Positions 240 to 14,520 of a stretch of 14,626 nucleotides of DNA are shown here, piece after piece (within the stretch, counting starts at the first letter, position 1; every line of letters begins with the position of its first letter). This stretch comes from Escherichia phage Ec1-ASingh: sequence record PQ561396; one strand, 5' to 3'. The notes beneath the pieces were generated by a model, which worked only from the letters and a program-made list of their open reading frames with translations, was not told where the DNA came from and made no database searches. The position numbers and the translations under genes are program-made.

Positions 240-680
240 TTATCCTAATAGTTGTTTGGTAATAATCTTGCCGCCGGTGTTGGCATCGAACTTAGACGCA
301 ACAGCTACGCCGCCATGTGCTGAATAACCACATTCCATAGCCGCCAGTGCATAAGGAGAGCCGGACCCAACGGCGGCAAAACCGTCTGCAATAGGGATAA
401 CCGAACTAAGTGCGCAATCCCACGATTTATAGAACGCGACTTTATACAACTTTTCTGTGTCTTTCACGAACACCAGGGCTTCGAAATCGAAGTCATAGTG
501 CTTTGCCAGAAGAATACCAGGGCAATCGATAAGCATATCCCCGATCCCTGCATCGCCAGCCACCCCAATAACAACAAATTCGTTCTCGTATATCTTTGTG
601 TCTGTGTTGTAACAGTCACTCCCACACACAACACGGGTATCACAAGCCATTGTCTTTCCGTCAAACGCGATAGTAGTCAT
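240..680 (-). CDS. Ntn-hydrolase, proteasome beta-subunit / HslV-like peptidase homologue (146 aa)
   Basis: ORF track. N-terminus MTTIAFDG puts Thr at position 2, the mature nucleophile position in proteasome beta/HslV. ACDTRVV resembles the GADTR segment, a conserved Lys follows (DTKIY), and GSGSPYALAA matches the GSGS motif. ATGA overlap with the upstream gene at 677-680. Confidence 0.55.
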   Translation of the reverse strand: MTTIAFDGKTMACDTRVVCGSDCYNTDTKIYENEFVVIGVAGDAGIGDMLIDCPGILLAKHYDFDFEALVFVKDTEKLYKVAFYKSWDCALSSVIPIADGFAAVGSGSPYALAAMECGYSAHGGVAVASKFDANTGGKIITKQLLG

Positions 681-970
681 TTATGTCTCCAGATGTATTG
701 CCGTCTCTGTGGTTTCGTCGGAATATCATCATACCCCAGCGATTTCCAGTAATTAAATAGCCGATTAGCGATTGCTGCGCGTTCCTTTGTCTTGAACTCA
801 CCGAGATTCACGGCATTCCCGTTCTGGAATCCACAGGCACGCACAGCTTTGCGTCTGGCCTGAATCTCAGGGTACAGCGCGTTACGGCGGCGCTTGTGTA
901 TTCGTGTATTCGCTCTCGGCGACAGCGGCGCAAGGCCGCTTCGTTTCAGGATGTCAGTTGCGAGGCTCAT
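677..970 (-). CDS. hypothetical protein (97 aa, basic)
   Basis: ORF track frame 677..1015, start moved to ATG at 970-968, which overlaps the TGA stop (969-967) of the upstream gene (ATGA coupling). Begins MSLATDILKRSG. Confidence 0.5.
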   Translation of the reverse strand: MSLATDILKRSGLAPLSPRANTRIHKRRRNALYPEIQARRKAVRACGFQNGNAVNLGEFKTKERAAIANRLFNYWKSLGYDDIPTKPQRRQYIWRHK

Positions 971-1161
971 ATTCCGAGAATCTCGCGGGCCATTTCTTCT
1001 GTAACTTTCGAACAAGGTGCGTACATTACCTGTTCGGCGAATTCACGTAACTTTGCTTCAAGTTTCAGATAAGCGTCGTATTCTACATAATCGCCGTATG
1101 CGTACTCAGCCATCTCAGGCTCTGGCAGGCCCCATTTTTCCACCTCATACCTCTGTACCAT
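967..1161 (-). CDS. hypothetical protein (64 aa, acidic)
   Basis: ORF track frame 967..1182, start moved to ATG at 1161-1159, preceded by AGGAG with 7-nt spacing and sitting just after the stop (1165-1163) of the upstream gene. Begins MVQRYEVEKWGL. Confidence 0.5.
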   Translation of the reverse strand: MVQRYEVEKWGLPEPEMAEYAYGDYVEYDAYLKLEAKLREFAEQVMYAPCSKVTEEMAREILGI

Positions 1162-1162
1162 G

Positions 1163-1366
1163 TTATTTCTCCTGTTTACCAAGTCGCTTAGGGGAGCAGA
1201 TGGCGCGTACCTCTGAATCGTTGGGCTTGTCGCCCTGAAACAGGAAGTGCGCGTTCTCCGCGGCGCGTGCCGCTGACTGGCACGCCTCCATCGAATAAAA
1301 CGTTTCTGATGCCGCTAGTTGCATCTGGCCTGCGGACAATACCCAGATAAATAAGATGCTGGTCAT
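1163..1366 (-). CDS. hypothetical small protein with N-terminal hydrophobic signal/anchor segment (67 aa)
   Basis: ORF track. ATG 1366-1364 overlaps the TGA (1365-1363) of the upstream gene. N-terminus MTSILFIWVLSAGQMQLAAS is signal-peptide-like; two Cys in the remainder. Confidence 0.45.
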   Translation of the reverse strand: MTSILFIWVLSAGQMQLAASETFYSMEACQSAARAAENAHFLFQGDKPNDSEVRAICSPKRLGKQEK

Positions 1367-1842
1367 GGCTTACGCACTCTGCAATTAAAGCAAACGAAGC
1401 CACTTTTGTGTTTACTATATAACCAATTGTGCTCGCATTCCTGTGTGTCAATCTTGTATTCCACTATGTCTGCGTATGTTCCATCCCAAATCCACGACCG
1501 CTTTTCTGCTGCTACACTGTGTTTCAGCTCCTCCCCGTTGCGATACCGGATAAATACCATAGTCCCATCCGGCACAGGTTGTCGTGCACCATAATGCGGC
1601 CTCCAGGCGTTGTACTGAGTATCTTCCTTACGGCAACCAGATTGCTCCGCTGCTATATAAGCGCCTACGTCGCCTGTAGCTGTAGCCAACGCCTTATGCA
1701 ACTCCTTAATATGTTCTGACGCATCACGTAACTGATTCTTGAGTGACAACACCTCGTGCGCCAGGTCTTCGCACTGGTTGCCATTTACCTGCTGCCGTAA
1801 CTGGCCAATCAGGTATTCGAATACTTCGTTTTTGTTACTCAT
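1363..1842 (-). CDS. hypothetical protein (159 aa)
   Basis: ORF track frame 1363..1848 begins with TTG; the first ATG is at 1842-1840. Coiled-coil-like N-terminal half, Trp/Cys-rich C-terminal half. Confidence 0.55.
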   Translation of the reverse strand: MSNKNEVFEYLIGQLRQQVNGNQCEDLAHEVLSLKNQLRDASEHIKELHKALATATGDVGAYIAAEQSGCRKEDTQYNAWRPHYGARQPVPDGTMVFIRYRNGEELKHSVAAEKRSWIWDGTYADIVEYKIDTQECEHNWLYSKHKSGFVCFNCRVRKP

Positions 1843-1975
1843 CCTCAACCCCCATTTTTATCGCTTTAGTGTCACCGTCGCACACCGAAGTGCTACCCAT
1901 TATTTTGTAAGCAGCTACCAGTGCGCCTAATGTCCAGGAACCATACCAGTCGTACCAATCTGCTGCAGGAATCAT
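1835..1975 (-). CDS. small ORF (45 aa), first gene of the leftward operon; not in the ORF track
   Basis: Hand translation: ATG at 1975-1973, GAGGAG 9 nt upstream (revcomp of 1985-1990), stop TAA at 1837-1835. Product MIPAADWYDWYGSWTLGALVAAYKIMGSTSVCDGDTKAIKMGVEDE. Sits directly downstream of the promoter at 2007-2035. Confidence 0.3.
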   Translation of the reverse strand: MIPAADWYDWYGSWTLGALVAAYKIMGSTSVCDGDTKAIKMGVEDE

Positions 1976-2006
1976 ATTCCGTCTCTCCTCTCGTTTGTGT
2001 AAATGA

Positions 2007-2035
2007 ATAGTAGCCTATTCTATCTCAGTGTGCAA
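2007..2035 (-). promoter_or_regulatory. sigma70-like promoter (minus strand) with embedded palindromic operator GAATAG-TAGC-CTATTC (2005-2020)
   Basis: Read on the minus strand: TTGCAC (2035-2030), 17-nt spacer, TACTAT (2012-2007). The -10 hexamer lies inside one half-site of the perfect 6-4-6 palindrome. RBS and ATG at 1975 follow. Confidence 0.5.
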
Positions 2036-2056
2036 GTAAATTTTATTGGTATTTGT

Positions 2057-2074
2057 ATTGTTGCATCTCCCGCA
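2057..2074. promoter_or_regulatory. variant palindrome CAATAG-N6-CTATTG (related half-sites, different spacing)
   Basis: caatagtcgcttctattg lies between the terminator at 2111-2150 and the promoter at 2007-2035. Same AATAG/CTATT half-sites as the operator family but with a 6-nt spacer. Confidence 0.25.
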
Positions 2075-2110
2075 ATAGTCGCTTCTATTGTTGCGTTTGG
2101 TGAAATAGAA

Positions 2111-2150
2111 CAAAAATGAGAAAAATGATACGCTGCTACACAGCAGCGTA
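2111..2150 (-). terminator. rho-independent terminator for the upstream leftward operon
   Basis: 9-bp stem 2129-2137 / 2142-2150 with loop ACAC. On the minus strand it is followed by a U-rich tract (revcomp of 2111-2128 = TCATTTTTCTCATTTTTG). Confidence 0.6.
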
Positions 2151-2162
2151 AGTCACTAAGCC

Positions 2163-2178
2163 AAATAGTAACCTATTG
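2163..2178. promoter_or_regulatory. operator-family palindrome AAATAG-TAAC-CTATTG without a convincing -35
   Basis: Same 6-4-6 architecture as the promoter-embedded operators. On the minus strand it supplies TACTAT, but the -35 position reads GGTGGT. Lies at the 3' end of the 53-aa ORF, upstream of the terminator. Confidence 0.3.
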
Positions 2179-2334
2179 ACCTGTTACACCACCTGTTACA
2201 CCAGCACGAGCCAGCACACCAGCTTTCCACGCCCGCCACGCGAGACGCGTCTTAACGTTCAGGTACTCTTTCTTCGAACCCTTGTTAACCGGCAGACCCT
2301 CGACGACGGCCCACCGTTCGAATGCTTCTCTCAT
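2173..2334 (-). CDS. small ORF (53 aa); not in the ORF track
   Basis: Hand translation: ATG 2334-2332 preceded by GAGGA (7-nt spacing), stop TAG 2175-2173. Product MREAFERWAVVEGLPVNKGSKKEYLNVKTRLAWRAWKAGVLARAGVTGGVTGQ. Fills the gap between the gene at 2338 and the terminator. Confidence 0.3.
   Translation of the reverse strand: MREAFERWAVVEGLPVNKGSKKEYLNVKTRLAWRAWKAGVLARAGVTGGVTGQ
2180..2203. repeat. perfect 12-bp tandem direct repeat (cctgttacacca x2)
   Basis: Positions 2180-2191 and 2192-2203 are identical. In frame within the 53-aa minus-strand ORF, encoding GVTGGVTG. Confidence 0.6.
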
Positions 2335-2337
2335 ATA

Positions 2338-2529
2338 CTAGTCCTCATCATCTTCTAAGTCGGGGTACACTATGAAATCGCCAAGCCTTTGCAGCTCCAC
2401 ACCAGCCATAAAATAACCAAGTGCTTCGGCTCTTTCGGAATCGGTTTTAAACTCAGACAGAGGATATCTTTCGTAGAACTTGTTAATTAATAACGCCTGG
2501 TCAAACTTAGTCGCATCATAATTATTCAT
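2338..2529 (-). CDS. hypothetical protein (63 aa) with acidic C-terminal tail
   Basis: ORF track frame 2338..2577, start moved to ATG 2529-2527 (GGAG 9 nt upstream), which overlaps the stop of the upstream gene (2524-2522). C-terminus YPDLEDDED. Confidence 0.5.
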   Translation of the reverse strand: MNNYDATKFDQALLINKFYERYPLSEFKTDSERAEALGYFMAGVELQRLGDFIVYPDLEDDED

Positions 2530-2731
2530 AACTAATAACTCCGATAACTTTAGATTCCTCGCACCGGGTGCAACCATGTTCTATGCAGTAGCGCGCCTGC
2601 TTGACGCTTTCGCAACGGGTCAGAGTAACCCACCAGAAAAAGCCAACGCGAACCTGCACGGCAGGTGTAATTCGTTTCTCACCGAAGGCGGTAACCCACT
2701 CCTCGCTAACTATGCGGTATTTACTTAACAC
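2522..2731 (-). CDS. hypothetical Cys4 zinc-ribbon-like small protein (about 69 aa)
   Basis: ORF track frame 2522..2791. The longest form would overlap the upstream gene by 70 nt. GTG at 2731-2729 has GGGAGG 5 nt upstream; ATG at 2767/2764 has no RBS. C-terminal Cys spacing C-x7-C-x4-C-x2-C (TRCESVKQARYCIEHGCTRCEE). Confidence 0.4.
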   Translation of the reverse strand: MLSKYRIVSEEWVTAFGEKRITPAVQVRVGFFWWVTLTRCESVKQARYCIEHGCTRCEESKVIGVISYE

Positions 2732-2927
2732 GGCAACCTCCCTCAGAGTCGTCGGCGCGAGCATCATGATTCGATGCCGTTCGGAGCGCACGTAAAACTT
2801 TCAGCAATAGCTCACATGTCCCGGAAGAAATAGTCGGGCCGTCTAATAAAATAACTTCGTATCTGTTTACCTGGAAATGCACTTTCTCCAGTTTATGATG
2901 TTTCAGTTCTTCAAATAATTCTTCCAT
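2721..2927 (-). CDS. hypothetical protein (68 aa)
   Basis: ORF track. ATG 2927-2925 overlaps the TGA (2929-2927) of the upstream gene; AGGGG 7 nt upstream. Confidence 0.5.
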   Translation of the reverse strand: MEELFEELKHHKLEKVHFQVNRYEVILLDGPTISSGTCELLLKVLRALRTASNHDARADDSEGGCRVK

Positions 2928-3109
2928 CACTTCGCCCCTTTGAATTTAAAATTGTTGCCGATGAGTTTCATATCCTGCGCGTATAACACGGTGAGATAGG
3001 ACCCCGTTAAAGATTCAGCAAAATAGATATTATTTTCTCTATGAAATGTGAAGATAACCGCTAACTCTCCAGTCTCTAAAATTTTCACCAACTGACCCTT
3101 CTTAAACAT
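2927..3109 (-). CDS. hypothetical protein (60 aa), first gene of the second leftward operon
   Basis: ORF track frame 2927..3118 begins with GTG; ATG at 3109-3107 has AGGAG 8 nt upstream. Begins MFKKGQLVKIL. Confidence 0.5.
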   Translation of the reverse strand: MFKKGQLVKILETGELAVIFTFHRENNIYFAESLTGSYLTVLYAQDMKLIGNNFKFKGAK

Positions 3110-3143
3110 AACCCTCACTCCTCTGTCTCGTTTCGATAAGTGA

Positions 3144-3172
3144 ATAGTATCCTATTATGTTGGGGTGTGCAA
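3144..3172 (-). promoter_or_regulatory. sigma70-like promoter (minus strand) with embedded operator GAATAG-TATC-CTATTA (3142-3157)
   Basis: Minus strand: TTGCAC (3172-3167), 17-nt spacer, TACTAT (3149-3144). Identical architecture to the promoter at 2007-2035. An extra GAATAG half-site at 3175-3180. Confidence 0.5.
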
Positions 3173-3214
3173 GAGAATAGTTACGCTGCCGTTGTGATTC
3201 TTTCGTTTCTTTAA

Positions 3215-3269
3215 AGAGTACGCAACGCAGTGGGTGGGCGTCAGCCCACCCCAGCGGAGTGAAGTACTC
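3215..3269. other. nested inverted repeats in a 430-bp non-coding region: perfect 8-bp GC hairpin inside a 7-bp outer inverted repeat
   Basis: Inner GGGTGGGC (3232-3239), loop GTCA, GCCCACCC (3244-3251). Outer AGAGTAC (3215-3221) and GTACTCT (3263-3269). No U-tract on either strand, so not a canonical intrinsic terminator. Confidence 0.5.
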
Positions 3270-3528
3270 TCTACCCTGCTTACGGCAACTATAGAAACTT
3301 TTAATTATCAGTGACTTGGGTATTTAGGTAGGATTAACAATAGACTTTGGCCCTTCCGAAAGCGCCAGCGGAACTACACTCAAGTGCTAAAGCACGCGTT
3401 GCGTTCCCTGCCGCTCCGCGGTCGCTTGCTCATACTTCACAAGCTCAGGTGGAGCTTATCATATTTTTAAGTAAAAGTCAATATCAGTAGCATCTTTTGT
3501 ATCTTAGTAACTTTGTGTGATGTTTTGG

Positions 3529-3557
3529 TTGCTTTTACATTCCCGCTATCCTATACT
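3529..3557 (+). promoter_or_regulatory. candidate sigma70 promoter for the rightward AlpA-like gene; no operator palindrome
   Basis: TTGCTT (3529-3534), 17-nt spacer, TATACT (3552-3557). AGGAG at 3576-3580 and ATG at 3589 follow. Confidence 0.35.
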
Positions 3558-3588
3558 CGTTTTCACCAAACAAACAGGAGATATAAAA

Positions 3589-3771
3589 ATGCAGCATTAC
3601 ATGACACAGAATGAAGTAGCTGAACGTATCGGGGTGACACGTCAGACAATTAATAACTGGTTGCGCAGCGGTAAATTCCCAGATTGCTGTATTAAGGTTA
3701 TGGGTCGCCGTTTACCTGGGACATTTGACCGTAATAAAGTTGAGGCGTGGATTAAGGAGAACGTGAAATGA
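3589..3771 (+). CDS. AlpA/excisionase-like HTH DNA-binding regulator (60 aa)
   Basis: ORF track frame 3517..3771, start moved to ATG 3589 (AGGAG 8 nt upstream). MTQNEVAERIGVTRQTINNWLRSGKFP matches the AlpA/Xis-type helix-turn-helix pattern. Confidence 0.7.
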   Translation: MQHYMTQNEVAERIGVTRQTINNWLRSGKFPDCCIKVMGRRLPGTFDRNKVEAWIKENVK

Positions 3772-4127: not shown

Positions 4128-4256
4128 ATGACAAAGTTAATAGTTCCACAGCTACGCCGCCAGAAACACGGCGCTGATTTCTTCGCACCGGTAAAGATGA
4201 ACCGCGCAATGCGCCGTATGCAGGAAGCCTTAGAACGTGCGGAGAAAAAGAAATGA
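4128..4256 (+). CDS. small basic ORF (42 aa); not in the ORF track
   Basis: Hand translation: ATG 4128 with AAGGA 7 nt upstream; stop TGA 4254-4256 overlaps the primase ATG at 4253 (ATGA). Product MTKLIVPQLRRQKHGADFFAPVKMNRAMRRMQEALERAEKKK. Confidence 0.35.
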   Translation: MTKLIVPQLRRQKHGADFFAPVKMNRAMRRMQEALERAEKKK

Positions 4257-6487
4257 ATATTGTTTTTGCAACGCTGCGTAACACATTCGATAAAAACCCT
4301 GTAGCACGTGAAATGCCGCTGGAGCAGTTCGTAGAGTATGTCTGCGATACATCGAAGCGTTTATCCGTGGACCCGTCATGGACTAAGGAAGAGTACGACG
4401 CCGCCAAGATTAAACAGAAAGCTATTGCACCTGTTGGTGGTCGCCGTAAAAACGCTATCCTGGAAGACAGTGTGGTTAAGTTCGACTTCGACCATCTCAA
4501 CCGTACTCAGTACCGCGACCTTACCCGCAAATTCAAGAACGCGCCATTCTTCAATATTCTGCACACAACGGCGTCGCACCAGCACGCGTGTAAAAACGGG
4601 GATTACGCCTTCCGCGTTCTGGTTCCGGCTCGCACGCCGTTTAACTCTAACGACGCGTGGATGGTGCAACGAGCTATTTGTGCAGAGTTAGAAATAGACG
4701 AAGCCTTGCGTGACCACTGCACAGAAGACGGCAACCGCCTTATCTACCTACCGCATAAAGAGTCGAAGATAACGGTTACAGAAGGTCGTGTTATCCGTGC
4801 CGAGCGGTACATCAAGAAAGCCGAAGAGATGGGGTTGTGTAAACGCGAAGCTAAGACACTTGCCGCCGATGAGCATGGGCTTAACGCTGATATAGCGCAT
4901 TTCTGCGAAGCCGAGCTTGGTCTTGACGCTTTATCTTCCGGGCGCGGGTACGAAGTGCCATGCCCTAACGAACATCTGCATACAGGCAAAGGCTCCACCA
5001 GCATCATGCTTGATGGTAAAGAAGTTCGCTTCGTGTGTCAGCACACAAACAACGGCGCTTGCACTGAGCTTAACCGCCGACAACATTTGGCCCTGCGTAT
5101 GTGCGGCCTTCCGGACGAGCTTAACGTAGACAAGCAACCTATCAGTATTAACAGCATTCGTGCGGCTCTGCCTGATTTACCAGATGAAGAGATTGAAGAA
5201 CTGCACCGCACCGAGAACGAGGATCCTGTAACTTGCAGCCTGGAAGACCTTGAAGAAGAGGACGAGTTACCAGAACCGGTAAAGGCTGATTTCGTCGTTG
5301 AAGGGTACATGCCATCAGATTGTATATGGGATATTGTCGGGGAATCTGGCACGTACAAATCATTCTATACGCTGGGGATGATGTATCTCAGCGCCGCCGG
5401 ATACCGGTTTGCGGGGGCGGACACCCAGCGTTGCCACCATTTTTATATCGACGGTGAAGGCGGTGCAGCTACACGCACACGTATTGATGCACTCGCGGCT
5501 AAATATGGCGCGGAAGGTAAAGATTATGTACATGTCATCGATATGGGAGAAGTCGGCAAACTGAAAAGCCTGATTAAGTTAATGCGCGAAACTGCTGGCG
5601 ACGAGCCAATTGGGATGGTCGCGTTCGACACCCTCAACCAGACGCTGGCCCTTACGATTGATAAGTTCGACGAGAACAGTTCCTCGACGGCAATCGGCAT
5701 GGGTAAAGTTATCGCCATCCTGAAAGAAGTACGCGATGCGACTAAAGCCGCGGTAGGCGTCGTCCACCATACACCGAAGGGTGGCAAGAAAGCCCGTGGC
5801 AGCGGCGCTCTGTATGCAGGCGTTGATGTGGAACTGACAATCGAACGTGCCACCGACCGTCAGATAAACGTATATCACTCTAAATTTAAGCACGGGCCGC
5901 AGCAGAAAACGGTTGGCATGGTGCTGGAGTCGGTACAGTTCCGTGAAGCACCACCGCCGAAAGAGTACCGCGCTGTTGAATTCCTTGGCAGCACAGAGGA
6001 ATACGGCACAATCGTAAACCTGGACCTGCCTGAGCCGCACAAGGCACTTGTGCTGATGCCGTGGGGGTTCGAACCGTTCAAGACCGACGAGGAGAAAGAG
6101 CGTGAAGAAGGGATGGCAAAGGAAGGTAAAGAAAATGTACGTAAAACCGTAGAGAACGCCGTCAACAGTTCGGAAGCCACGATACTCGCGGCGTTTGAAC
6201 TGGCGGAAGGAACCTACAACGGCAACGAAGGCATCACGGTAGCCGCAGCGAATAAGCTCGCACAGTCCGACCCTAACGCAAAGGCGTTCAACTCCAAAGA
6301 AGCCATAGAACGCGGGAAGATTAAGAAAATGGTTGAGGCCGGGTATCTTGTGCCTGGTACTGACGAAAATAATCAGATAATCCCTGGTCGCTACAGGCTT
6401 AACACCAGGATAACGGATAACAAAATTCCTAAGACAATATACGAACCGAATGAGATGCTGATAGTGACAGAGGAAGATTTGGAGTAG
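4253..6487 (+). CDS. replication protein, putative primase/helicase: N-terminal Cys/His-cluster domain, acidic linker, C-terminal RecA-like ATPase (744 aa)
   Basis: ORF track. C-terminal half has a P-loop-like GESGTYKS, Walker-B-like MVAFDT, VVHHTPKGG and RGSGALYAGVD, a pattern typical of RepA/AAA_25-type replicative ATPases. N-terminal half has CPNEHLH...CQHTNNGAC. The C-terminal assignment is stronger than the N-terminal one. Confidence 0.8.
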   Translation: MNIVFATLRNTFDKNPVAREMPLEQFVEYVCDTSKRLSVDPSWTKEEYDAAKIKQKAIAPVGGRRKNAILEDSVVKFDFDHLNRTQYRDLTRKFKNAPFFNILHTTASHQHACKNGDYAFRVLVPARTPFNSNDAWMVQRAICAELEIDEALRDHCTEDGNRLIYLPHKESKITVTEGRVIRAERYIKKAEEMGLCKREAKTLAADEHGLNADIAHFCEAELGLDALSSGRGYEVPCPNEHLHTGKGSTSIMLDGKEVRFVCQHTNNGACTELNRRQHLALRMCGLPDELNVDKQPISINSIRAALPDLPDEEIEELHRTENEDPVTCSLEDLEEEDELPEPVKADFVVEGYMPSDCIWDIVGESGTYKSFYTLGMMYLSAAGYRFAGADTQRCHHFYIDGEGGAATRTRIDALAAKYGAEGKDYVHVIDMGEVGKLKSLIKLMRETAGDEPIGMVAFDTLNQTLALTIDKFDENSSSTAIGMGKVIAILKEVRDATKAAVGVVHHTPKGGKKARGSGALYAGVDVELTIERATDRQINVYHSKFKHGPQQKTVGMVLESVQFREAPPPKEYRAVEFLGSTEEYGTIVNLDLPEPHKALVLMPWGFEPFKTDEEKEREEGMAKEGKENVRKTVENAVNSSEATILAAFELAEGTYNGNEGITVAAANKLAQSDPNAKAFNSKEAIERGKIKKMVEAGYLVPGTDENNQIIPGRYRLNTRITDNKIPKTIYEPNEMLIVTEEDLE

Positions 6488-6515
6488 GTAAAAAGAAAGG
6501 GGCGTTAAGCCCCTT
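6485..6515 (-). terminator. rho-independent terminator for the XRE repressor gene; its loop contains that gene's stop codon
   Basis: 7-bp stem 6497-6503 / 6509-6515, loop GTTAA (6504-6508) holding the TAA (revcomp of 6505-6507). U-tract on the minus strand (revcomp of 6485-6496 = TCTTTTTACCTA). No U-tract on the plus strand. Confidence 0.55.
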
Positions 6516-6720
6516 CACCGAACGCCAGCCACTTGGCGTCTACTTCCAGTACTTCCGCCAGTTTAAACAGCGTTGCCGGGCGGACGTCCTGAGTTACCCC
6601 AAGTGTCAGCTGGTTAATTGCGCCCTGGGAAACACCGGCCAGGACAGCCAGACGGCGCTGGGAGATGCCAAGTTCTTTACGGCGTTGTTCTACACGGATG
6701 CCTAGTTCAGATGGTTGCAT
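6505..6720 (-). CDS. XRE-family (Cro/CI-type) helix-turn-helix transcriptional regulator (71 aa)
   Basis: ORF track. LGISQRRLAVLAGVSQGAINQL is a textbook XRE HTH. AAGGAG 8 nt upstream of ATG 6720. Convergent with the primase gene, divergent from the rightward replication operon. Confidence 0.8.
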   Translation of the reverse strand: MQPSELGIRVEQRRKELGISQRRLAVLAGVSQGAINQLTLGVTQDVRPATLFKLAEVLEVDAKWLAFGEGA

Positions 6721-6740
6721 GTCAATTACTCCTTAGTTAG

Positions 6741-6770
6741 TTGATATGTGAATAGTACCATATTAATTAT
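6741..6770 (-). promoter_or_regulatory. operator GAATAG-TACC-ATATTA (6750-6765) over a candidate extended -10 promoter of the XRE repressor gene
   Basis: Minus strand reads TGGTACTAT (TG at 6760-6759, TACTAT at 6757-6752), about 24 nt upstream of the RBS. The -35 is poor. A plus-strand reading (TTGATA 6741-6746, 17 nt, TAATTA) is weak. Confidence 0.4.
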
Positions 6771-6784
6771 TTTAGAAAAGCCCA

Positions 6785-6813
6785 TTGACATGTGAATAGT
6801 TCGCTATTATAGT
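6785..6813 (+). promoter_or_regulatory. sigma70 promoter of the rightward replication operon with operator GAATAG-TTCG-CTATTA (6794-6809) in the spacer
   Basis: TTGACA (6785-6790), 17-nt spacer, TATAGT (6808-6813). GAGGAG at 6831-6836 and ATG at 6845 follow. Confidence 0.55.
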
Positions 6814-6844
6814 TAACCCATACCAAACGAGAGGAGAGAAACAA

Positions 6845-7366
6845 ATGTTAGAGAAATTCTTAGTATTACTGGAACGTTTCGTAGTTGCACATGAACTGAT
6901 TGCTGCGAACAGTGTGAAACCACAAAACAGCAAATCAGTAGGTGAATTAACGGTTGACGTCGCGGTAACGGGGGTAGAAACAGTTAAAAAAGAACTGGCT
7001 AAAGCACTTGAAGAAGTCGAGAAGGCGAAAGAAATCCCGGTGGAAGGCGAAGACATCGTTGACACTAAACCGGCAGAAGAAGAGAAGCCGAAACGCAAGC
7101 CGCGGAAAGCTAAAGTAGAGGAACCTTCGCCAGAGCCGGAAGAAGAGAAAGAAGAAGTCGATTATAAGTCTCTGCGCGACCAGATTCAGGCTATCGACGA
7201 TGCAATTAACGAAGGTCCGAGCGATGCTGCGTGTGATGACTCCGATGAACTGCTGGAAGAGTTCACCGGTAAGAAGATGAAGATTGCCGCAATTAAAGAC
7301 GAAGACCTGGCCGAGTACCTGGAACGCCTGACGGCAATCAAGAACAAGTATTTCGAAGAAGAATAA
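6845..7366 (+). CDS. highly acidic, low-complexity protein (173 aa), first gene of the rightward operon
   Basis: ORF track. Strong RBS. Glu/Asp-rich throughout with interspersed Lys (for example PAEEEKPKRKPRKAKVEEPSPEPEEEKEEVDY and ACDDSDELLEEF). Function unknown. Confidence 0.7.
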   Translation: MLEKFLVLLERFVVAHELIAANSVKPQNSKSVGELTVDVAVTGVETVKKELAKALEEVEKAKEIPVEGEDIVDTKPAEEEKPKRKPRKAKVEEPSPEPEEEKEEVDYKSLRDQIQAIDDAINEGPSDAACDDSDELLEEFTGKKMKIAAIKDEDLAEYLERLTAIKNKYFEEE

Positions 7367-7372
7367 CTATCT

Positions 7373-7393
7373 GGCGGCCTTCGGGCCGCTTTA
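7373..7393 (+). terminator. hairpin with UUCG tetraloop plus a short U-tract (weak or partial intrinsic terminator)
   Basis: Stem GCGGCC (7374-7379) / GGCCGC (7384-7389), loop TTCG, then TTTA. Confidence 0.4.
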
Positions 7394-7409
7394 ACTGAGG
7401 GTCGTAATT

Positions 7410-7682
7410 ATGATTTACCAACTCTACCGCGCCGTTGACAGGCGGGATAACACAGAGGCGTTGTGGCTGTTGCGTGCGCCGTCAGGTGCGCACCAGATGG
7501 AAGAGATGGCGTACTTAGGCAAAGTACCACGGCCTAAAGATATAGGCCGTCACGTGTCGCAGATTAAGCGCACGACTTTCGCCAAACCTGATTTTTATGT
7601 CTTCGAGTCGATGTATGGGTGGGCCATGCACTGCCAGCACCAGACCAGGCATTTAATTGACCAGTGGGAGAACAGAGTATGA
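7410..7682 (+). CDS. hypothetical protein (90 aa)
   Basis: ORF track. GAGGG 9 nt upstream of ATG 7410. Stop TGA 7680-7682 overlaps the ATG (7679) of the nuclease gene. Confidence 0.6.
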   Translation: MIYQLYRAVDRRDNTEALWLLRAPSGAHQMEEMAYLGKVPRPKDIGRHVSQIKRTTFAKPDFYVFESMYGWAMHCQHQTRHLIDQWENRV

Positions 7683-8920
7683 TTTTAAAGGAACGCGGCG
7701 GCAATAACGATGTGCACGCCTTACTGTCGCCGTCAGGTGCTAAAAAGTGGTTAACCTGCGCCGCATCGCTGGCCTGTGAAAAAGATATCCCTAACACGTC
7801 CGGTAAAGCCGCGGTATTAGGTACAGCCATGCACACCATAGCAGAGGTCCATCTAAATCAGTACATCAGAGGCACTGCGCTGCCGTTAGAGCGCGAAGTT
7901 GGCGCTTATGTGCTGGATGAAGGCAAAGGCCAGATTAAGGCACTAATTAGCCCGATGAAAGGCGCTGTCCTGATTACGGCTGACATGATTGAGCAGGTGC
8001 GCAAGTACACCGACTACTGCAAAGCTGTTATCGATGTAGCGACTTACGCCAAGCTGGAAATGCGTGTCAATCTTACTGAGGTATTGCATCCGGGTTACGA
8101 AGGTGTCGAGACGTTCGGAACCGCTGACCTTGTTGCCGTTCAGGAACTGGCTAACACCGACGAGCACATGCTAATTATCGGTGACCTTAAAACCGGGCGA
8201 CATCGTGTCGAAGCGAAAGAAAACAAGCAGCTTATGCTTTACGCTCTCGGTGTTTATCGCCGACTCAAGAGACGTTATAACATCACAGTAGTGCGCCTGG
8301 TCATCTTCCAGCCGTACGCGGGAGGTGCGGCAGAGTGGGACATCTCGGTCGAAGGTCTGGAACTGTTCGCTAAGTTCGCACAGAAACGTGCCCTGTTAGC
8401 GTTAGATGCATATTTCCGCGGTAAGAAGAACCTGAAAGCGTCGGACTTCAGGCCGTCGGTCGATGGTTGCCAGTGGTGCCGGTTCTCAGAACAGTGCGCC
8501 GCGCGTACAAAAACCGTTAACTCTGTACTGGCGGAAGGACTTGAAGACGACTTTGTGCTAGAAATGACGCCGGAGCAACTCGTAGTTGAGTATGAGAAGT
8601 TGCCGCTGTTGCGCCAGCACATCGACAAGGTTGAGAAAGCGATGGCCGCCGCATTGCATTCTGGTAAGAAAGTTCCTGGGTACAAGCTGGTTGAAGGTAA
8701 GACGGGCAATCGTGCGTGGAAAGACGCGGAGAAAGTAACAGAACTCTACGGCGACAAGCTGACTAAAGAAGTGCTCATGACGCCAACCGAAGCTGTTAAA
8801 GTGATACCGGAAGAAGAACTGAAAGACTTCATCGCACGTAAGCCAGGTGCCCCATGCATCGCAAAGGCAGACGACAAACGGCCTGAGTGGAATCAGGTTA
8901 GTGAAGAAGATTTGGGATAA
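7679..8920 (+). CDS. PD-(D/E)XK nuclease with a Cas4/AddB-like four-Cys (Fe-S) cluster (413 aa)
   Basis: ORF track frame 7664..8920, start moved to ATG 7679 (ATGA coupling). N-terminal Cys in SPSGAKKWLTC, nuclease core ADLVAV...IIGDLKTG...QLMLYALG, C-terminal CQWCRFSEQC (C-x2-C-x5-C). Confidence 0.75.
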   Translation: MILKERGGNNDVHALLSPSGAKKWLTCAASLACEKDIPNTSGKAAVLGTAMHTIAEVHLNQYIRGTALPLEREVGAYVLDEGKGQIKALISPMKGAVLITADMIEQVRKYTDYCKAVIDVATYAKLEMRVNLTEVLHPGYEGVETFGTADLVAVQELANTDEHMLIIGDLKTGRHRVEAKENKQLMLYALGVYRRLKRRYNITVVRLVIFQPYAGGAAEWDISVEGLELFAKFAQKRALLALDAYFRGKKNLKASDFRPSVDGCQWCRFSEQCAARTKTVNSVLAEGLEDDFVLEMTPEQLVVEYEKLPLLRQHIDKVEKAMAAALHSGKKVPGYKLVEGKTGNRAWKDAEKVTELYGDKLTKEVLMTPTEAVKVIPEEELKDFIARKPGAPCIAKADDKRPEWNQVSEEDLG

Positions 8921-8924
8921 AGTG

Positions 8925-8953
8925 TTGACACCTGAATAGCGAACTATTATAGT
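8925..8953 (+). promoter_or_regulatory. sigma70 promoter with operator GAATAG-CGAA-CTATTA (8934-8949) in the spacer
   Basis: TGTTGACA (-35 at 8925-8930), 17-nt spacer, TATAGT (8948-8953). Same architecture as 6785-6813. Drives the SSB-like and polymerase genes. Confidence 0.55.
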
Positions 8954-9016
8954 TAAATCACTGGCCGGGCAGTTCCCGGAGTAAACTTAAAATCTAAACT
9001 TAATGAGGGCTGAACT

Positions 9017-12027: not shown

Positions 12028-12122
12028 AAATTTACTGGTTCTATGAAGAAGACTGCCGAATCTGTCCGCGCTGCGGGATTGAGCATACAAAACGTGAGGG
12101 GTGCATAGATGAGTACGCCTGA
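12024..12122 (+). CDS. small ORF (32 aa) with four Cys, possible zinc-ribbon peptide; not in the ORF track
   Basis: ATG 12024 overlaps the upstream TGA (ATGA). Product MKIYWFYEEDCRICPRCGIEHTKREGCIDEYA. Overlaps the VRR-NUC start by 14 nt. No clear RBS, so weak. Confidence 0.2.
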   Translation: MKIYWFYEEDCRICPRCGIEHTKREGCIDEYA

Positions 12123-12414
12123 GGGGCGCGTCCAAAAATACGCAAAAGAGCAATTCGAGGCCATTGGTGGCCTCGTTCGTAAACTTTCCTACGAAAATAG
12201 AGCGGGCGCTCCTGACCTGCTGGTAATTCTCCCTGGCGGCATAGTCTGGTTCGTCGAGGTTAAGAAAGACGAAAACACGAAGCCAGACCCACACCAGCTA
12301 CGGGAGCACGAGCGGATGCGTAAACGGGGCGCAAATGTTTTTGTCGTTGGCTCTATAAAACAGGTTGACGACCTAATAGAGGGCTATTATAGTAGCCACA
12401 CACCAACAATATAA
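12109..12414 (+). CDS. VRR-NUC domain nuclease (101 aa)
   Basis: ORF track. GAGGGG 7 nt upstream. PD-(D/E)XK core GAPDLLVILPGGIVWFVEVKK with downstream Gln (PHQLREHE), the pattern of VRR-NUC proteins. Confidence 0.75.
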   Translation: MSTPEGRVQKYAKEQFEAIGGLVRKLSYENRAGAPDLLVILPGGIVWFVEVKKDENTKPDPHQLREHERMRKRGANVFVVGSIKQVDDLIEGYYSSHTPTI

Positions 12415-12617: not shown

Positions 12618-14038
12618 GTAAGTTTCAAAGGCGCGAATACCAGAAGCTCATGACTTCGTTCATGTTGCAACACCCGCGCTGTAATATCTGGTGCGGTATG
12701 GGCGGCGGCAAGACCTCGTCGACGTTGTGGGTTCTCAATCGACTGTTCCGTAATGGGCAACTTAATGACGACGACCGAGTGTTAATTCTGGCTCCTTTAC
12801 GTGTTGCGTCAGGTACGTGGCCCGCGGAACAGGCACGTTGGAACTTCCCTTGTCTGCGCGTCGTAGATGCGACCGGTTCGGAGAAGCGCCGCATCGCGGC
12901 GCTGGAGTCTGACGCTAACGTGGTGTGCACGAACTACGAAGTTATCGAGTGGCTGATTGACTACTACGGCAAAGACGACTGGCCTTTTACTGTTATCGTT
13001 GCCGATGAGAGTACGAAGCTAAAATCTTTCCGCAGCCGTTCAGGCGGTAGTAAGAGAGCAAAGGCGCTTAGTAAAGTGGCGTTCGGTAAGGTTAAGCGTT
13101 TCATTAACCTTACGGGAACACCGTCACCGAACGGCCTCAAAGACTTATGGGGGCAGAACTGGTTTATCGACGCTGGCGAGCGCCTGGGGTCTTCATATAC
13201 AGCATTCACCGACCGCTGGTTTAACTCGGTACAGAAAGGCAAATCGGCTATGGCGCGCGAATACCACGCCCGCCCTGGCGCGGATAATGAAATTCACCAG
13301 AAGATGAAGGACATTAGTCTCACGATTGACGCTGCCGAGTGGTTCGGTTGTGAAGCGCCGATTATCGTCCCTGTTGAAATCGACCTGCCGAAGAAAGCGC
13401 GTCAGGCGTACCTAGATATGGAGGAAAAATTATTCGCGGAACTGGAAAGCGGCGAAGTTGAAGCGGCTAACGCAGCGGCGAAGACATCGAAGTGTCTGCA
13501 GATCGCATCCGGTGCCGTGTATGTGTCAGGGCCGGACGGAGAAGCAACCAAAGACTGGGAGAAAGTTCACGACACGAAACTGGATGCGCTGGAGTCCATT
13601 GTGGAGGAGTTACAGGGCGCACCGTTACTGGTGGCCTATCAGTTCAAGCACGAACTGGAGCGCATCCTTAAGCGATTCCCGCAGGCGCAGGCGTTTGCCA
13701 AAGGCGCTAAGGGTAATAAGCAGATGGAAGCGTGGAACCGTGGTGAAATACCTATGCTCCTGCTACACCCAGCCTCCGCAGGCCACGGGCTGTCGCTACA
13801 ACACGGCGGGCACCACATGGCCTTTATGAGTCAGGGGTGGAACCTAGAACATTATCTGCAGGTTATCGAGCGTATAGGTCCGGTAAGGCAGATGCAGTCC
13901 GGATACAAACGGTCTGTATTCATTTATCAAATAATAGCCCGAGATACTCTTGATGAAGTTGTCGCCGCGCGTACAGACGAGAAAAGGTCTGTACAGGACG
14001 AACTACTTAATTATATGAAGAGAAGGAGTAAGAAATGA
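12614..14038 (+). CDS. SNF2-family (DEAD-like) helicase / ATPase (474 aa)
   Basis: ORF track. Motif I GMGGGKT, Ia LILAPLRV, II VIVADESTKLK, III INLTGTP, V HPASAGHGLSLQ, VI QVIERIGPVRQ. Immediately follows the VRR-NUC gene, a common pairing. Confidence 0.8.
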   Translation: MSKFQRREYQKLMTSFMLQHPRCNIWCGMGGGKTSSTLWVLNRLFRNGQLNDDDRVLILAPLRVASGTWPAEQARWNFPCLRVVDATGSEKRRIAALESDANVVCTNYEVIEWLIDYYGKDDWPFTVIVADESTKLKSFRSRSGGSKRAKALSKVAFGKVKRFINLTGTPSPNGLKDLWGQNWFIDAGERLGSSYTAFTDRWFNSVQKGKSAMAREYHARPGADNEIHQKMKDISLTIDAAEWFGCEAPIIVPVEIDLPKKARQAYLDMEEKLFAELESGEVEAANAAAKTSKCLQIASGAVYVSGPDGEATKDWEKVHDTKLDALESIVEELQGAPLLVAYQFKHELERILKRFPQAQAFAKGAKGNKQMEAWNRGEIPMLLLHPASAGHGLSLQHGGHHMAFMSQGWNLEHYLQVIERIGPVRQMQSGYKRSVFIYQIIARDTLDEVVAARTDEKRSVQDELLNYMKRRSKK

Positions 14039-14520
14039 GCAAGGTATCTTACGACCCTGAAACCGGTATTTTCACATGGGTTGAAACAAAACGTAGGGGT
14101 TTTATTGGAAAGAAAGCAGGATGTTTTTGTCCGCGGGACGGGTACATTCGTATCCGAATAAACGGAAAACTAGAACTAGCACATCGGTTAGCATGGGATA
14201 TCTGCAATCCCGATAACCCACTTACACCACAGGAACAGATAGACCACATCAATCATATTCGAACTGATAACCGAATATGCAACCTACGGAAAGTTACCAA
14301 CACTGAAAATAGCCGCAACGCATCAATAGGGGTAAACAATACTAGTGGCGCTCTTGGTGTATGGCGGGAAAAGAGAAGAAACAAATGGGTAGCAGAGATA
14401 AAGGTAGACAGACGAAAAATACATCTAGGCCAGTTTGATGATTTTGACGAAGCGGTTGCCGCGCGTAAAGCCGCGGAAGCTGCTTACGGATTTCATGAAA
14501 ACCACGGAGAAACTGCGTGA
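14035..14520 (+). CDS. freestanding HNH endonuclease with C-terminal AP2 DNA-binding domain, homing-endonuclease-like (161 aa)
   Basis: ORF track. ATGA overlap with the helicase gene. HNH core LAHRLAW...IDHINHIRTDNRICNLRKVTNTENSRN. AP2-like GVWREKRRNKWVAEIKVDRRKIHLGQFDDFDEAVAARKAAEAAY. Confidence 0.8.
   Translation: MSKVSYDPETGIFTWVETKRRGFIGKKAGCFCPRDGYIRIRINGKLELAHRLAWDICNPDNPLTPQEQIDHINHIRTDNRICNLRKVTNTENSRNASIGVNNTSGALGVWREKRRNKWVAEIKVDRRKIHLGQFDDFDEAVAARKAAEAAYGFHENHGETA

Follow-up and report, generated by a model that had tools for sequence, protein, structure and literature searches.

The control of phage promoters by a Cro-type repressor acting on dyad operators is a known concept. 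Phage 434 Cro binds as a dimer to a 14-bp palindrome, and in phages P1 (C1), L5 (gp71, with its "stoperators") and phiC31 (whose repressor uses inverted repeats) a single repressor serves many dispersed sites, mostly on the promoters of early operons. P1, L5 and phiC31 are temperate, and their repressor maintains the prophage; the sites of P1 and L5 are asymmetric, and many of the L5 sites lie inside transcription units. Here we describe an uncharacterised case in a 14,626-nucleotide stretch of Escherichia phage Ec1-ASingh (sequence record PQ561396; the whole stretch is called the window below), in which the gene of a 71-amino-acid (71-aa) XRE-family repressor related to 434 Cro (6505..6720, minus strand) lies back-to-back with the promoter of a replication operon, and in which one 14-bp palindrome recurs on promoters well beyond that locus. 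We consider it probable, from sequence comparison and structure prediction, that these elements constitute a Cro-only, phage-wide negative-feedback or shut-off regulon on the host-sigma-70 early and replication promoters of a virulent phage.

The window phage is a Kagunavirus, a K1G/K1H-like siphophage of the subfamily Guernseyvirinae (small siphoviruses). A 2-kb stretch around the XRE locus is 91-93% identical to many Escherichia Kagunavirus phages (Ivi, fFiEco02, K1H, K1G) and matches 445 phage records in total, with the Salmonella Jerseyviruses as more distant relatives. Phages of both kinds, Kagunavirus and Jerseyvirus, are widely isolated for use in therapy and biocontrol, and are found in the BASEL collection and in synthetic-biology chassis work; their gene regulation is essentially undescribed, and our literature searches returned no description of an operator or of XRE function in Guernseyvirinae. 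For comparison, 36 Kagunavirus and 12 Jerseyvirus loci were drawn from IMG/VR, together with four more divergent Kagunavirus-like contigs, and orthologous promoter regions were aligned on their flanks, the motif itself not being used as an anchor. Conservation figures refer to 33-38 Kagunavirus loci per promoter and are pairwise diversities per site.

The repressor and its divergent promoter region

The XRE protein matches Pfam HTH_3 over residues 11-65 with 47.7 bits, above the gathering cut-off of 23, and its nearest solved sequence is that of phage 434 Cro, itself 71 aa long (phmmer E 5e-7, residues 6-68, about 38-40% identity). An AlphaFold2 model, with a predicted local distance difference test score (pLDDT) of 80.5, has five helices, at residues 5-17, 21-28, 32-39, 48-57 and 62-66. 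This predicted fold superposes on both 434 Cro and 434 repressor (Foldseek template modelling (TM) scores of 0.73/0.79 for 2cro and 0.76/0.78 for 1pra), and the predicted recognition helix starts at SQGAINQL. All matches of the XRE protein in a large-database search were to Kagunavirus-like phages that share its helix, and there was no homologue in an unrelated genomic context. The Shine-Dalgarno sequence of the gene, AAGGAG (6729..6734, minus), is kept in Kagunavirus and Jerseyvirus.

The rightward promoter, P_R, reads TTGACA (6785-6790)-17-TATAGT (6808-6813) on the plus strand (6785..6813), agrees with the sigma-70 consensus at 11 of 12 positions, and ties for the best such match in the window. 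Downstream of it lie 6845-7366, 7410-7682 and the gene of a DUF2800/PD-(D/E)XK exonuclease, which together make up the operon 6845-8920, the first of three rightward replication-module operons. A 25-nt direct repeat occupies 6741-6765 and 6785-6809 (84% identity, 44-bp spacing) and includes the -35 element; each copy has as its core the 14-bp palindrome AATAG-N4-CTATT, whose extended form is tGAATAG-N4-CTATTa. The right-hand copy, O_R (AATAGTTCGCTATT, 6795..6808), is an exact palindrome in the P_R spacer that occupies positions -25 to -12, its final T being the first base of the -10 element. The left-hand copy, O_L (AATAGTACCATATT, 6751..6764, one mismatch), overlaps the -10 of the candidate promoter of the XRE gene itself, P_xre, where the minus strand reads TGGTACTAT at 6751-6759; this is an extended -10, TGgTACTAT (TACTAT = 6756..6751), with no good -35. 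The initial annotation had described an XRE/Cro-type repressor gene divergent from a replication-operon promoter, with two operator copies 44 bp apart, one in the spacer of the rightward promoter and one over the repressor's own extended -10. All of these elements are present, and the coordinates of the two copies can be refined from 6750-6765 and 6794-6809 to 6751-6764 and 6795-6808. Autoregulation of the repressor, which it had also proposed, is implied by the position of the putative operator on the gene's own -10.

At the position orthologous to P_xre the Jerseyviruses carry TTGCAC-17-TACTAT, and the TACTAT-in-operator arrangement of P_xre recurs in the window at 2006 and 3143. A second candidate for the XRE promoter, TTCACA-16-TAAAAT (6796..6769, minus, 10/12 matches), was rejected as the main one because its hexamers are kept neither in a divergent Kagunavirus subgroup nor in Jerseyvirus, whereas TACTAT is kept: in that subgroup, whose XRE is only 77-78% identical, TGcTACTAT persists and the AT-rich block of the alternative promoter has been replaced. 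The distance between O_L and O_R, centre to centre, is 44 bp in Kagunavirus, 43 bp in the subgroup and 55 bp in Jerseyvirus. The Jerseyvirus intergenic region (L002, L042-L053) has an 11-bp insertion relative to Kagunavirus, equal to one helical turn, and this insertion also provides the TTGCAC -35 of the XRE promoter.

One palindrome on promoters across the window and genome

AATAG-N4-CTATT, with at most one mismatch, is present in 8 copies in the window where 0.33 would be expected, a number not attained in any of 200 shuffles; it is also the most over-represented palindrome of the 5-Nk-5 form there (6 exact copies against 0.01 expected). Beyond the XRE locus it is found at 2006, 2164, 3143, 8935 and 12375, which brings the credible sites to 7 in 14.6 kb; the eighth match, a one-mismatch copy at 4413 inside the primase gene, is probably due to chance. 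The K1H genome (41.6 kb) holds 12 matches against 1.12 expected, with about eight solid promoter sites. The compact, local switch that the initial annotation saw at the XRE locus is therefore not borne out, the same putative operator being present at no fewer than five other sites in the window and at about eight solid sites in K1H.

The promoters that carry the palindrome fall into two classes. Class A comprises P_R (6785), P2 (8925) and P3 (12365), which rank highest among the plus-strand sigma-70 matches of the window and share the design TTGACA-N4-AATAGnnnnCTAT joined directly to TATAGT, with the site spanning about -25 to -12 in the same register in all three. P2 (TTGACA-17-TATAGT, 8925..8953, plus; operator 8935-8948, AATAGCGAACTATT) drives the genes of an Enc34-type single-stranded DNA (ssDNA)-binding protein and DNA polymerase A, and P3 (TTGACG-17-TATAGT, 12365..12393, plus; operator 12375-12388, AATAGAGGGCTATT) drives the operon of the SNF2 helicase. 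P3, together with its operator, is embedded in the 3'-terminal part of the VRR-NUC-like open reading frame (ORF) 12109-12414, annotated in K1H as a Holliday junction resolvase, so that coding sequence and regulatory dyad are superimposed there.

Class B, on the minus strand at 3143 and 2006, has the design TTGCAC-N17-TACTAT, in which the -10 coincides with dyad positions 8-13 and the site spans about -19 to -6; P_xre is a class-B promoter that lacks the -35 and has the TG of an extended -10. One class-B promoter, TTGCAC (3172..3167)-17-TACTAT (3149..3144), lies at 3143..3172 with its operator at 3143-3156, belongs to the small-gene operon 3118..2173, and is conserved in 46 loci; the other, TTGCAC (2035..2030)-17-TACTAT (2012..2007), lies at 2006..2035 with its operator at 2006-2019 and belongs to the operon starting at 1975. 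The register of the site relative to the -10 differs by 6 bp between the two classes, which marks the site as an element separate from the promoter hexamers. The remaining exact copy (2164..2177) has no recognisable -35; it stands at the stop of ORF 2173-2334, just before a terminator at 2150-2129, and is poorly conserved, being degenerate or absent in several relatives, K1H included.

Further features were observed around these sites. A tandem GTGTAACAGGT repeat (2179-2202) precedes the copy at 2164, and between the terminator and the 2006 promoter the minus strand carries AATAG-AAGCGA-CTATT (2074-2089), with the same half-sites around a 6-bp centre, which may be a decayed site or one with alternative spacing. 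On its opposite strand, the 3143 cassette resembles a weak class-A promoter, TCGATA-17-TATGTT, directed into the stretch 3157-3600, and the regulon may thus include the primase operon too. This stretch is about 440 bp of non-coding DNA between the 3143 leftward promoter and the gene of an HTH_17 protein; it has no Rfam match and contains a GC-rich hairpin at 3232-3251 (GGGTGGGC-gtca-GCCCACCC). Another hairpin, CCGGG-cagtt-CCCGG (8965-8979, plus), occupies roughly nucleotides +6 to +20 of the P2 transcript and is kept in Kagunavirus, in Jerseyvirus and even in phage PSDA-2, which lacks the operator; it may have a role in translation or in transcript stability.

In K1H (L001) a single operator (site 13028) is common to two face-to-face overlapping promoters at 13018-13060, of which the rightward one, GTTACA-17-TATATT, points toward the tail genes and the leftward one, TTGCAC-17-TACTAT, toward a repair-exonuclease/kinase operon embedded in the structural region. 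At 39034-39062 of K1H, and at the same place in L034 and L055-L059, a conserved sigma-70-like promoter, TTGACT-17-TATATT, leads from the endolysin terminator into the packaging genes. Of the dyad it contains the right half-site (CTATT) alone; this promoter may be an operator-free late one, and the incomplete dyad hints at differential control.

Selective conservation of the half-sites

Among about 35 distinct Kagunavirus intergenic sequences the O_L half-sites never change, whereas the central 4 bp are altered in one sequence and the flank in one. On the class-A promoters the diversity of the two half-sites is 0.000/0.000 at P_R, 0.018/0.000 at P2 and 0.033/0.017 at P3; for the central 4 bp it is 0.206, 0.327 and 0.317, and for the 4 nt before the site 0.306, 0.089 and 0.143, respectively. 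The P_R -35 has zero diversity in 38 loci, and the 4 nt between it and O_R contain a 1-nt indel among Kagunavirus loci, by which the length of the spacer is changed. The left half-site varies no more than the -35 and -10 hexamers do, despite its position in the promoter spacer, a region in which sigma-70 RNA polymerase has no base-specific preference. Invariant half-sites combined with a 6-bp difference in register would be the pattern expected of a dimeric DNA-binding protein.

In the Jerseyviruses, whose XRE is 50% identical, the core TAATAG-N4-CTATTA is kept on orthologous promoters. In the PSDA-2/GRNsp27 lineage XRE is 40% identical and has a different helix, the gene has been relocated and the palindrome is absent; no over-represented palindrome and no obvious shared word was found on the promoters of that lineage.

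Proposed circuit and competing explanations

The protein that binds AATAG-N4-CTATT is most likely XRE, acting as a dimer. Its helix VSQGAINQL is invariant in 37 of 38 Kagunavirus loci, the exception being a single G-to-S change. Given the gene and its fold, the promoter matches, and the excess, promoter placement and selective conservation of the sites, a circuit can be proposed. On infection, host RNA polymerase would fire all class-A and class-B promoters, and XRE would accumulate from its own TG-extended promoter. The exact sites, on P_R, P2, P3 and on the leftward promoters, would be the first that XRE fills; further accumulation would fill the one-mismatch O_L as well and so shut off the synthesis of XRE itself. 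Early and replication transcription would in this way come under a negative feedback loop whose set-point is autoregulated. O_R covers -25 to -12 of P_R, and an occupied site would thus block RNA polymerase from the operon 6845-8920, while O_L contains the P_xre -10, such that the repressor would turn off its own synthesis. We infer both repression by XRE binding and the order in which the sites fill. In a Kagunavirus RNA-seq paper an HTH-domain gene is among only four early genes (PMC12645636), and this gene is probably the XRE orthologue.

The palindrome might instead be bound by HTH_17, by a phage DNA-binding protein encoded outside the window or by a host factor, with XRE targeting something else; we regard this as rather unlikely. 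HTH_17 (3601..3771, plus; 56 aa from MTQNEV, 33.6 bits, phrog_66) stands first in the primase operon and encodes the second DNA-binding protein in the window. It is more conserved than XRE between Kagunavirus and Jerseyvirus, matching the conserved operator core, and, like the palindrome, it is absent from the PSDA-2/GRNsp27 lineage. Yet its predicted recognition helix exists in at least four variants (VTRQTINN, VTRRTLNN, VSPMTLNR, VSTMTLNR) among Kagunaviruses that share the operator; L024 and L034, in which the primase N-terminal module is a different one and no homologue of HTH_17 is encoded within 10 kb, still have 5 and 8 sites; proteins of the HTH_17/excisionase type usually bind direct repeats and not dyads; and the two sites flank XRE's own promoter in the classic layout of autoregulation. 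These points favour XRE over HTH_17 as the putative binder. With regard to a host factor, we know of no E. coli regulator consensus with the spacing of AATAG-N4-CTATT, and the ARG box (TGAAT-N4-ATTCA) is ruled out by its spacing, which here is TGAAT-N8-ATTCA. It is improbable, in our judgement, that there is no repressor at all and that the palindrome, as one piece of a duplicated promoter-leader cassette, is kept for recognition by RNA polymerase or through shared ancestry. Such a cassette would fit the 25-nt repeat that includes the -35, the leader/Shine-Dalgarno sequence ACGAGAGGAGAGA shared between cassettes, and the right half-site, which overlaps or abuts the -10 in every case. It does not account for a left half-site in the spacer that is as invariant as the hexamers while its neighbours vary, even in length by 1 nt, nor for two site registers 6 bp apart relative to the -10, for the 2164 copy that has no -35, or for an exact dyad with a free centre, which is the signature of a dimeric binder.

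Two further explanations accept XRE as the binder and concern what it does. XRE could act differently by promoter, repressing the strong class-A promoters and sparing or timing the class-B and bidirectional ones in an early-to-late programme. The two site registers, the weaker match of O_L and the K1H 39034 promoter before the packaging genes, with its incomplete palindrome, can be read in this way; but the site covers part of the core promoter in either register, which makes activation unlikely, and the sole transcriptome paper (PMC12645636) is coarse, and we think such a division of labour unlikely. Least probable of all, and very improbable in our estimate, is the CI/Cro-like bistable switch of the initial annotation, which would set lytic growth against a repressed (lysogenic or carrier) state. 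The divergent layout with two operators, the relationship of XRE to 434 Cro and CI, and the presence of operators on nearly all promoters, a requirement of a prophage-maintenance repressor such as P1 C1 or L5 gp71, all lend themselves to it. However, a second regulator that could act as antagonist was not found: the divergent gene (6845-7366) encodes no DNA-binding domain and lacks a Pfam match (phrog_3127, of unknown function), and the sole other HTH protein is HTH_17, 3 kb away in another operon. There are two sites only at the locus, in place of a three-site operator (OR1-3); XRE has neither an S24-peptidase nor an oligomerisation domain; and the position of the site would repress, not activate, its own promoter. 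The initial annotation had seen no integrase and had suggested a check of the rest of the genome, which was made through relatives: the window contains none, and none is annotated in the complete K1H and PVP-SE2 genomes. Nor was a lysogeny module (integrase/excisionase or plasmid-prophage maintenance, including partition and telomere-resolvase genes) found in the window or annotated in K1H and PVP-SE2. In the BASEL study, Kagunavirus was among the small siphoviruses characterised and no temperate features were noted, and a Jerseyvirus relative has been judged virulent. Since there is neither a CI partner nor an integrase, the bistable reading is unsupported, and the XRE locus is most likely the autoregulatory hub of a phage-wide regulon and not a local lysis/lysogeny module.

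Several observations nonetheless weigh against the regulon as proposed. The promoter cassettes share the leader sequence aaACGAGAGGAGAGA, and ACGAGAGGAGAGA is common to 6823-6835 and the stretch after site 2006, so that part of the similarity between cassettes reflects common descent. The class-B promoters have only 8/12 consensus matches and are inferred from position and conservation. No clean case of protein-operator covariation was obtained from the comparison of Kagunavirus, Jerseyvirus and PSDA-2, because the operator core is the same while the Jerseyvirus XRE helix differs (SQGAINQ versus SQSLITH); and since the PSDA-2/GRNsp27 lineage lacks HTH_17 as well as the palindrome, presence and absence do not separate the two candidate binders. 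We do not claim that O_L and O_R are bound cooperatively or joined in a loop, although the change from 44 to 55 bp keeps the helical phase: cooperativity is unsupported because the 71-aa XRE has no oligomerisation domain and the 11-bp insertion also supplies a -35. Finally, K1H sites 36586 and 13028 are on promoters leading into lysis and tail genes, and with sites ahead of these operons a simple early shut-off or early-to-late switch is not established.

A bolder version of the regulon, doubtful but worth stating, is that the whole host-RNA-polymerase programme of a virulent siphovirus is under a single Cro-size repressor, with one palindrome, in two registers, in all early, all replication and some bidirectional promoters. 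Timing would then be set by graded site quality (the exact sites, then O_L) and by titration of the repressor by replicating genomes, and in its extreme form such a programme could allow a reversible, integrase-free silent (carrier) state of the genome.

Neighbouring genes and the repressor terminator

The window is organised into leftward operons of small genes of unknown function (240-3118, minus); a rightward operon that encodes the HTH_17 protein (3601-3771), an uncharacterised protein of 96 aa and a primase-helicase (4253-6487); the XRE gene; and the rightward replication and recombination genes. These last encode two unknowns, the DUF2800/PD-(D/E)XK exonuclease, the Enc34-type ssDNA-binding protein, DNA polymerase A, the VRR-NUC-like protein, the SNF2 helicase and an HNH endonuclease. 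The ORF listed for the HTH_17 (excisionase/MerR-like) protein, 3517-3771, probably starts too early. The HNH_3 endonuclease (14035-14520, plus), which lies 3' of the SNF2 helicase gene and has a weak AP2-domain match, is probably a homing endonuclease; relatives have HNH genes or inteins elsewhere in the replication module. An Rfam scan of the window matched zero families.

The XRE gene ends in an intrinsic terminator (stem 6516-6496, minus; a centroid hairpin of -13.3 kcal/mol followed by CUUUUU), the loop of which contains the stop codon TAA (6507-6505). The hairpin, the U-run and the position of the stop can all be read from the sequence, in agreement with the earlier proposal of a terminator with the stop codon in its loop, convergent with the primase gene. 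Read on the plus strand, that of the primase gene, the hairpin is not followed by a T-run, and transcription of the primase operon may therefore continue past it, in antisense to XRE.

Significance and comparison with known systems

If XRE is the binder, the sites would form a compact promoter/repressor set in which a single 71-aa repressor is matched by about eight natural promoter variants. An annotation of "repressor" in Kagunavirus and Jerseyvirus genomes would then not imply lysogeny, which bears on safety assessment, and these phages would offer a simple system for the study of transcription timing in a lytic phage that uses host RNA polymerase only.

Among described systems, 434 Cro shares with XRE the length of 71 aa, the HTH_3 family, the five-helix fold (TM 0.73-0.79), a 14-bp dyad over core promoter elements and a divergent promoter region. 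The sites differ, ACAA-N6-TTGT in 434 and AATAG/CTATT with a 4-bp centre here, as does the context: the Kagunavirus locus has no CI partner and no OR1-OR3 triplet, and the repressor's own promoter would be directly occluded. Moreover, the operators of 434 are confined to OL and OR, whereas here they are found on about eight promoters of a virulent phage. The C proteins of restriction-modification systems (C.AhdI) are likewise XRE dimers of about 70-80 aa with a similar predicted fold, paired dyads upstream of their own gene and concentration-dependent autoregulation. Unlike XRE, however, whose putative site covers the -10, they first activate their own promoter, and their sites differ in sequence and spacing; the neighbours of the XRE gene are the primase-helicase and replication/recombination genes, not those of a restriction-modification system.

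With P1 C1, L5 gp71 and the phiC31 repressor the Kagunavirus system shares its dispersed operators (7 sites in 14.6 kb; about 8 in K1H), and it differs from them in that the sites are palindromic and almost all on promoters, the protein is a minimal helix-turn-helix of Cro size, and no lysogeny functions were found. Lambda Cro has a different fold, and lambda has two operator regions only, plus the antagonist CI; the proposed role of XRE nevertheless resembles that of lambda Cro, a small early protein that turns down strong early promoters, including its own (PL/PR in lambda).

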